In this document: piece by piece, positions 1,341 through 1,572 of the stretch
How the letters are laid out: each line of letters opens with the position of its first letter
Position numbering within the stretch: position 1 is the stretch's first letter
The notes under the pieces: model-generated
Database searches by the model: none
What the model was told of the DNA's origin: nothing
Seen by the model: only the letters and a program-made list of their open reading frames with translations
Position numbers and translations under genes: made by a program
Assembly: GCF_003334255.1 (NCBI RefSeq)
Contig: NZ_QOWU01000119.1
DNA length: 3,540 bases
Source: Escherichia coli
GTDB taxonomy: Bacteria > Pseudomonadota > Gammaproteobacteria > Enterobacterales > Enterobacteriaceae
Reading direction: 5' to 3' (one strand)

Positions 1341-1462
1341 TTATCAAAACGAGAATGACGCGGGTTTAGTGGCACCGGGCTGAACTCACCGGGAGGCACC
1401 CGGCACCATGTTCATGGTGATACAGAAATGCGGCTTCAGCCCCTCTCCGGAGGGGCTTTCTT
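1341..1462 (+). ncRNA. Candidate small RNA (about 120 nt), 5' end approximate
   Basis: It is bounded by TATAAT (1329-1334) and a strong intrinsic terminator (1439-1462). Internal hairpins are CCGGG-AGGCA-CCCGG (1389-1403) and CACCAT-GTTC-ATGGTG (1404-1419). There is no credible ORF. This is prediction only, with no expression data. Confidence 0.35.
1439..1462 (+). terminator. Rho-independent terminator (+ strand)
   Basis: GCCCCTC-TCCG-GAGGGGC forms a 7-bp GC-rich stem with a 4-nt loop, immediately followed by TTTCTT. The reverse strand has no T-tract, so it is unidirectional. Confidence 0.75.
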
Positions 1463-1468
1463 ATGGAC

Positions 1469-1496
1469 AAAAAAGCCCGCGCTGGGAGACGCGGGC
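1469..1496 (-). terminator. Rho-independent terminator (- strand)
   Basis: The minus strand reads GCCCGCG-TCTCCCAG-CGCGGGC followed by TTTTTT (the plus-strand A-run at 1469-1474). The stem is 7 bp of pure GC. It is unidirectional, and it converges on the + strand terminator 6 nt away. Confidence 0.75.
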
Positions 1497-1536
1497 GGCA
1501 AGGAATAAACAATAAAACGTGAAGTAATATTTCAGC
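1469..1536 (-). ncRNA. Candidate small RNA (about 68 nt) on the minus strand, 5' end approximate
   Basis: A minus-strand promoter-like pair precedes it: TTGCGC (1572-1567), an 18-bp spacer, then TATTAT (1548-1543). The predicted transcript is GCUGAAAUAUUACUUCACGUUUUAUUGUUUAUUCCUUGCC followed by a GC hairpin and U6. It has an AU-rich, apparently unstructured 5' part and then a terminator, the usual Hfq-type sRNA layout. Prediction only. Confidence 0.35.
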
Positions 1537-1542
1537 TGGCGA

Positions 1543-1572
1543 ATAATACCCCATAGTAATCACTCTGCGCAA
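1543..1572 (-). promoter_or_regulatory. Candidate sigma70 promoter on the minus strand (-35 TTGCGC, 18-bp spacer, -10 TATTAT)
   Basis: The hexamers are read from the reverse complement. The -10 matches 5 of 6 and the -35 matches 4 of 6. The orientation and distance fit the minus-strand terminator at 1469-1496. Confidence 0.3.

Follow-up and report, generated by a model that had tools for sequence, protein, structure and literature searches.

The window analyzed here, a 3,540-nt stretch of Escherichia coli DNA, comes from a lambdoid prophage resembling Stx phages, of which it covers the moron site in the late region. It opens with the 3' end of a DNA methylase gene (10-243; PF01555), followed by two plus-strand tRNA genes (284-359 and 369-445) with anticodons CAT and TCG. 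Sakai Sp4, Sp5 and the inspected Stx2a phage have three tRNAs at this slot (ileZ, argN and argO), and the argO-type tRNA-Arg(TCT) is missing from the window. A plus-strand moron ORF of 142 aa (724-1152) occupies the position of stxAB in Stx phages. It has a lipobox-like N-terminus (LTTGC), a TolA C-terminal domain (PF06519, 81 bits) and a weak TonB_2 match, and its product might serve in the periplasm as a TolA-domain-III decoy for colicins or filamentous phages. Downstream of the moron, rather than directly after Q, lies a full-length plus-strand STnc100 RNA (1259-1468; Rfam RF02076, 165.6 bits versus a gathering score of 47). This RNA corresponds to Sakai EcOnc05 and EcOnc27, and its terminator (1438-1457, plus strand) is the own terminator of a PR'-type short transcript. 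Farther downstream, the hairpin CTGCGCAACTGCGCGG (1565-1580) is followed by CCTTTTT, forming an element that is terminator-like in the plus direction (1565-1587); in all, three terminator-like hairpins are clustered within 1438-1587. The plus-strand gene nanS-p, which encodes DUF1737, SASA esterase and DUF6645 domains, begins with an ATG at 1690.

Between STnc100 and nanS-p, the minus strand carries a compact candidate transcription unit, whose 3' end meets that of the convergent STnc100 RNA within a few bases. All motifs that a first-pass annotation had described for this unit, from the -35 hexamer through the spacer, -10, body and terminator to the U6 tract, were found where it had placed them. 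The proximal promoter candidate (1572-1543) consists of the -35 TTGCGC (1572-1567), the 18-nt spacer AGAGTGATTACTATGGGG and the -10 TATTAT (1548-1543). After the -10, the minus strand reads TCGCC-AGCTGAAATATTACTTCACGTTTTATTGTTTATTCCTTGCC, then GCCCGCGT-CTCCCA-GCGCGGGC, and then TTTTTT. If +1 is A1537, as the mapped AsxR start site suggests, the predicted short isoform would be 69 nt long and coincide with the 3' Hfq-binding module (1469-1537). The intrinsic terminator (1496-1469) pairs 1496-1489 with 1482-1475 around a 6-nt loop (1488-1483) and ends in the U6 tail (1474-1469); a terminator scan rates it as strong, with 7 G-C among its 8 pairs. The 69-nt RNA folds at -17.9 kcal/mol (z = -2.9) with the terminator formed. 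Its first 41 nt are essentially open in the centroid fold, in agreement with the previously proposed body of about 40 nt that lacks self-pairing. The unit thus has the general features of an Hfq-dependent sRNA: a Rho-independent terminator ending in six or more U, an upstream U-rich stretch and an accessible seed.

This element is already known, although it has neither a name nor an Rfam family. It is very probably the 3' module of a prophage sRNA recorded as EcOnc08/21/42 in EHEC and as E2348C_1409.E2348C_1408.IGR in EPEC, an Hfq-bound RNA with a primary transcript of ~190 nt that pairs in trans via CCUUGCC. The EcOnc08 Hfq-CRAC peak of EHEC Sakai lies on the minus strand at 1179938-1180010 and was present in 5/5 datasets (Tree 2014, PMC4104026 Table S2). 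On the Sp4 copy this peak is TCGCCAGCUGAAAUAUUACUUCACGUUUUGUUGUUUAUUCCUUGCCGCCCGCGUCUCCCUGCGCGGGCUUUUU, which runs from just after the -10 to the T-run (TCGCC to CTTTTT) and shows single-base differences only from window positions 1469-1542. The EcOnc21 peak (1180016-1180101) adjoins EcOnc08 on its 5' side, and EcOnc42 is the Sp15 copy of the EcOnc21 region. For this comparison, the Table S2 coordinates were mapped to NC_002695.2 with no shift assumed at Sp4 (for Sp5 and Sp15 the shift amounts to +135), and the zero shift is supported by the exact fit of the peak ends and by the position of the northern probe between the two peaks. The probe EcOnc08/21/42 detected a band of ~271 nt (PMC4104026); its sequence matches at 35/35 positions in Sp4 and at 30/35 in the window. 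In EPEC E2348/69, the RNA was reported as a new minus-strand sRNA of 182 nt (1444978 to 1444797), and its authors remarked on its homology to EcOnc08/21/42 (Pearl Mizrahi 2021, PMC8550237 Table S6).

Alignments show that the window cassette is also carried by Sakai Sp4, where it is near-identical, and by EPEC PP6. The copies share their position, promoter hexamers, terminator stem and seed with the window, and one base separates the 41-nt bodies of the window and these copies (A instead of G at window position 1513). Relative to the EHEC and EPEC copies, the window allele has a few spacer substitutions, one loop substitution and a U6 instead of a U7 tail. The upstream moron varies, being a TolA-domain lipoprotein in the window and stx1 in Sp15, while Sp4 has no moron ORF. 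In the window, as in EcOnc08/21/42 and the EPEC sRNA, the RNA lies on the minus strand between an STnc100-type RNA and nanS-p. RNase E-CLASH in Sakai yielded a few low-count hybrids for EcOnc21 and EcOnc42, and the CLASH fragment ATTATTCGCCAGCTGAAATATTACTTC occurs exactly in the window. Sought in the literature, the sequence strings of the RNA were printed in the main text of no paper found. By sequence and position, the window copy appears to be the same RNA as those of EHEC and EPEC. Since that RNA was already found Hfq-bound in two pathogenic E. coli strains, the element is a rediscovery rather than a new element. The Hfq-CRAC (EHEC) and RIL-seq (EPEC) data on the homologs support the earlier call, made from the letters alone, of a real, non-coding minus-strand sRNA gene of the Hfq type, while the 5' end given in that call is not supported by the published RNAs, which appear to start upstream.

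Using 501 bases around the element as the query, we obtained matches in 1160 E. coli records and 337 phage records. Of 5426 complete E. coli genomes, 1109 carry the element, among them UTI89, APEC O18 and O157 strains, and so do 58 phage records, most of them Stx-converting; in the Stx2a phage Stx2_14040 it lies just downstream of stx2B. The RNA is common, occurring in about one fifth of complete E. coli genomes, ExPEC included, and in Stx1, Stx2a and Stx2d phages. Annotation of the sRNA was absent from every inspected record. When GTDB species-representative genomes were scanned twice for patterns from the core of the body, the first scan returned 0 matches and the second 9, all of them chance matches in unrelated surroundings. 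Within the collections searched, this accessory RNA turned up nowhere but in E. coli and Shigella phage DNA.

An IMG/VR scan with the conserved hairpin pattern returned 120 loci, 82 of which carry window-type cassettes and 33 AsxR/AgvB/EcOnc03-type cassettes; in both families 18 nt separate the shared TTGCGC from a TATTAT or TAAAAT. Among the 45 unique contexts with a window-type cassette, there were no variable columns in the -35 hexamer (0/6), the -10 hexamer (0/6) or the U-tract (0/6), 4/18 in the spacer and 6/41 in the body, the latter all rare variants. The corresponding counts were 83/131 in the flank towards nanS-p (1581-1711) and 27/56 in the flank within STnc100 (1380-1435). In the terminator helix, 93% of cells were paired over 13 variants, with 2 pairs changed on both sides, versus 29-59% for slid controls. 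More divergent homologs retain parts of the same design. Two of them, L139 and L140, keep TTGCAA-18-TATTAT or TACTAT, CUUCACGU, UUAUUCCUUGCC and the terminator within an unrelated upstream context and with unrelated spacers; the unit is preceded there by a terminator-like hairpin on the same strand. Another (L137) adjoins a holin gene and lacks the distal promoter described below, and a fourth (L136) keeps the promoter and CUUGCC with a different body. The spacers of L139 (383-400) and L140 (386-403) are themselves almost perfect dyads (AATCTG..CGGATT and AACCTGAT..ATCAGGTT, respectively), and a compensatory change distinguishes the two; such a dyad could be a regulator's operator or a hairpin in a longer RNA.

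The putative seed, CCUUGCC (1503-1497, minus strand), lies directly 5' of the terminator stem. The RIL-seq target motif of the EPEC sRNA, GGCAAGG or GGCAGGG, is complementary to the segment 5' of the terminator (PMC8550237 Fig. S5, motif table), and the CCUUGCC of the window is the complement of GGCAAGG. CUUGC is invariant in 13/13 aligned variants, including L136 with its otherwise different body. By RNAduplex, the seed region pairs with most quoted target sites at -10 to -21 kcal/mol, values to be read with a seed that is short (7 nt) and GC-rich and a MEME target motif with E = 0.0096. In EPEC, the sRNA is the second chimera partner in 9/10 interactions (PMC8550237 Tables S3, S5, S6), a position that is the signature of an sRNA. 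EPEC RIL-seq chimera counts were 767 for the cfa 5'UTR, 197 for the dppA 5'UTR and 118 for pcm, followed by perA (30), tir (29), espC (26), E2348C_3965 (16) and emrA (15) (PMC8550237). RIL-seq and CLASH chimeras represent proximity on Hfq or RNase E, rather than regulation. The RIL-seq data point to trans targets (cfa, dppA, pcm and others) reached via CCUUGCC, rather than to action in cis. Because the documented partners are mRNAs or UTRs and not core sRNAs, sponge activity is not indicated. The linked targets bear on membrane cyclopropanation and acid resistance (cfa) and on peptide and haem uptake (dppA), and from the published interactions with cfa, dppA and LEE genes it is reasonable to consider the RNA a candidate by which prophages modulate the physiology of their host.

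Where this RNA starts is a separate matter. The first-pass annotation had proposed a discrete primary transcript of ~68 nt from TTGCGC/TATTAT and regarded this unit as the only credible minus-strand signal. The published forms are longer (182 nt and ~271 nt) and do not support the first point as stated; the second is contradicted by a better-scoring promoter at 1696-1668 on the same strand, within the same transcription unit. The PWM score of the proximal promoter, 8.05, is the fourth best on the minus strand, and shuffled controls gave 4.9 +/- 2.2 matches per strand at 8.05, placing the proximal match alone at chance level. A stricter promoter scan of the window did not list TTGCGC/TATTAT, and a match this good would be found 40-120 nt upstream of a given terminator in ~10% of cases by chance. 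Thus, the case for the proximal promoter rests on comparative and published evidence. The distal promoter candidate, ATGTCA-17-GATAAT (1696-1668, minus strand), scores 9.1 and overlaps the nanS-p start codon. Transcription from it would start at ~1661 and yield a long isoform of ~182-193 nt (1469-1661) antisense to the nanS-p 5' leader, the form documented in the EHEC and EPEC homologs.

Several published observations locate the 5' end in this upstream region. The contiguous CRAC peaks EcOnc21 and EcOnc08 span the long isoform, the EPEC RNA-seq start estimate (1444978) maps ~11 nt downstream of ~1661, and CLASH fragments assigned to EcOnc21/42 start 2-5 nt after ~1661. Other CLASH fragments, AUAUUAUUCGCC... 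and AUUAUUCGCC..., span the proximal -10. The northern probe is the plus-strand sequence over the -10, spacer and -35, and hence detects a minus-strand RNA crossing the proposed proximal promoter. Taken together, the probe site, the 182-nt RNA-seq form and the CLASH fragments across the -10 indicate that the documented RNA starts upstream, near 1650-1661. The sizes themselves disagree, being ~271 nt by northern blot, 182 nt by RNA-seq and ~193 nt as predicted here.

In the mechanism that we propose, the minus strand of the moron slot, which the PR'-type short transcript and nanS-p flank, would be transcribed towards STnc100. A primary transcript of ~190 nt would be initiated at the distal promoter and would end at the intrinsic terminator. 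It would bind Hfq, presumably via the U-rich stretch and the U tail, and CCUUGCC would then base-pair in trans with host and virulence mRNAs; the mRNA partners recovered, which would be among those targets, are cfa and dppA (both at the 5'UTR), pcm, tir, perA, espC and emrA.

In addition to this long transcript, a form of 69-75 nt is likely to exist, generated either from the proximal promoter or by RNase E cleavage at the AUUAUU boundary. We regard as a serious contender, though somewhat short of an even chance, a separate primary transcript of 68-69 nt that starts 6-7 nt after TATTAT and coexists with, or dominates, the long form. AsxR, EcOnc03 and related cassettes have the same -35 and 18-nt spacer, followed by TAAAAT, and the 5' ends of AsxR were mapped as primary by RLM-RACE (PMC4104026). 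Given this mapped start, the shared promoter geometry and the hexamers kept in divergent homologs, a 69-nt primary transcript is plausible. Both proximal hexamers are invariant while the spacer varies in the 45 unique contexts. In L139 and L140 the hexamers hold their 18-nt spacing in an unrelated context, where they are among the top-scoring promoters, and in L137 the unit stands beside the holin gene with the distal promoter absent. Moreover, the CRAC peaks EcOnc21 and EcOnc08 part exactly at the -10. Against these points stand the chance-level score of the proximal promoter, the 182-nt size found by RNA-seq in EPEC and CLASH fragments, including ATTATTCGCC, that lie upstream of the proposed +1. 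The sole northern probe also lies upstream of the proposed start and is therefore blind to a short form. The conservation of the hexamers could instead reflect a weak RNA hairpin in the long form, and RNAalifold does predict a hairpin over the promoter region of that form, with a covariation term of ~0.

A somewhat less probable source of the short form, which we hold tentatively, is processing, in which RNase E would cut the ~190-nt transcript at GGAU|AUUAUUCG (GGAU|AUUAUU) to release a 3' Hfq-bound fragment of ~75 nt. RNase E prefers RN|WUU, and the GGAU|AUUAUU site fits this preference. The boundary of the two CRAC peaks falls in AUUAU, and two RNase E-CLASH fragments start at AUAUUAUUCG and AUUAUUCG. 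These fragments have 1-2 reads each, however, and CLASH fragment ends come from RNase trimming and are not natural ends. PasA, from the same prophage region, has been reported as processed from a longer transcript. Cleavage leaves unexplained the exact 18-nt hexamer spacing in divergent homologs that are devoid of the upstream transcript context.

It is unlikely that the main role of the RNA is in cis, through pairing with Q-antiterminated late transcripts across 1469-1661 or through interference by convergent transcription, so as to modulate nanS-p and the lysis genes. Complementarity between the long form and the nanS-p leader is perfect, the distal promoter overlaps the nanS-p start codon, and placement beside nanS-p or holin genes recurs. 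Yet the EPEC chimera list contains no chimeras with an antisense partner while trans targets are abundant, and the conserved part is the seed and 3' module, not the part that overlaps the leader. Family members also exist without nanS-p upstream, and the RNA is expressed in uninduced lysogens, where late transcripts are absent. Finally, it is highly improbable that the region has no RNA function and is a mere terminator or insulator, as the cluster of three hairpins might suggest, or that the 68-aa ORF across 1366-1572 is the gene. Conservation is higher in the unpaired body and seed than in the flanks, and published Hfq binding and specific chimeras contradict such a reading. The ORF, already discounted by the first-pass annotation, has no Pfam or NCBIfam match, and its frame is lost in homologs, whose T-runs vary in length from 6 to 9 and which carry indels of 4 nt and 7 nt.

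The position of the sRNA is shared with other prophage RNAs. The window flanks (STnc100, the hairpin CTGCGCAACTGCGCGG and nanS-p) align with those of the Sakai Stx2 phage, Sp5, in which AsxR fills the segment between them. For the moron site located 3' of PR', this arrangement has been described under the name 'convergent sRNA pairs' (Tree 2014, PMC4104026). STnc100/PasD (RF02076), with which the element makes up such a pair, is the convergent neighbour on the opposite strand and a different RNA from the element. AsxR, AgvB and EcOnc03 occupy the same slot as the element: they converge with an STnc100-type RNA, and nanS-p or holin lies downstream of the slot. They share with the element the -35 TTGCGC within the same conserved hairpin and the 18-nt spacer, but the AsxR-type -10 is TAAAAT whereas that of the element is TATTAT. 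All are short Hfq-binding RNAs in which a UUGCC motif abuts a GCCCG-type terminator, while the body of the element is unrelated to those of AsxR and AgvB and the RNA is longer (69 nt versus 51-60 nt). Membership in the AsxR or AgvB families (RF02703, RF02702) was rejected, with no model match at E <= 1 in the window or at E <= 10 in 1440-1680 (241 nt); the model region sought includes the ~42-nt 3' part GUAUCUCAUGC..UUGCCCGAACCCAYUCGGGC. The positive control, Sakai Sp5, scored 88.1 bits (RF02703) and 40.9 bits.

The complement of the hairpin at 1565-1587 supplies the -35 TTGCGC used by both AsxR-type and EcOnc08-type cassettes. The hairpin is kept in the window, Sakai Sp5 and Stx2_14040, and its 3' arm and T-tract are common to the 120 IMG/VR loci, whichever cassette is present. 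At least three types of body (AsxR/AgvB/EcOnc03, EcOnc08 and phiSTEC1589) stand behind TTGCGC-18-TAWWAT. A fourth RNA, EcOnc32-like, is in an equivalent position convergent with PasD1 in EPEC PP4. It is possible, although we consider it doubtful, that the slot is a modular sRNA expression site and that the EcOnc08-type cassette is a two-isoform gene. The fixed -35 within the plus-strand terminator hairpin would then drive interchangeable cassettes of spacer, -10 and sRNA. From the EcOnc08-type cassette, a ~190-nt form would be antisense to the nanS-p leader, and a ~69-nt form from the internal promoter would act in trans. If so, the ~69-nt form would tie prophage carriage to the expression of host cfa, dppA and pcm and of the LEE (tir). 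Genome scans should recognise the slot for convergent sRNAs that follows PR'-type transcripts as the hot spot it is already known to be.

The RNA in EPEC PP4 (L143 813-902, minus strand; NC_011601 ~1060612-1060701) is a homolog of EcOnc32 and differs from the element; it gives a weak score of 32 bits on the Esr41 model. The RIL-seq annotation places it within the 'CDS' E2348C_1013, and as a second partner (of entC and nlpD, among others) it is very abundant.

We also compared the element with other known RNAs. Rfam searches of the window and of the narrow region assigned no family to the element. A match to OmrA-B (RF00079) was rejected at 21.8 bits, below the gathering score of 40; the match reaches across the promoter region and is based mostly on the terminator, outside which many of its pairs are non-canonical. 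Matches to anti-hemB and Leu_leader were likewise below the Rfam threshold, apparently resting largely on the terminator. Nor is the element one of the Pas sRNAs of EPEC: the STnc100-type partner corresponds to PasD, PasA and PasC are encoded between the esterase and holin genes, and PasB is found within the structural genes.

A likeness to Spot 42 deserves separate mention. An 11-nt identity, UUACUUCACGU, joins window positions 1517-1527 (minus strand) and L141 939-949 to Spot 42 nt 40-50. It was reached in 34/20000 shuffles, in a comparison made post hoc among several sRNAs. We treat Spot 42 mimicry as no more than a lead. By our pairing of the sequence, most of the 11 nt fall within the 3' strand of the first stem of Spot 42, outside its seed region III, and a search of the element with the Spot_42 model gave no match. 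Spot 42 regulates nanC, and its likeness beside nanS-p may be a coincidence. Spot 42 and the element both have GCCGCCC at the start of the terminator.
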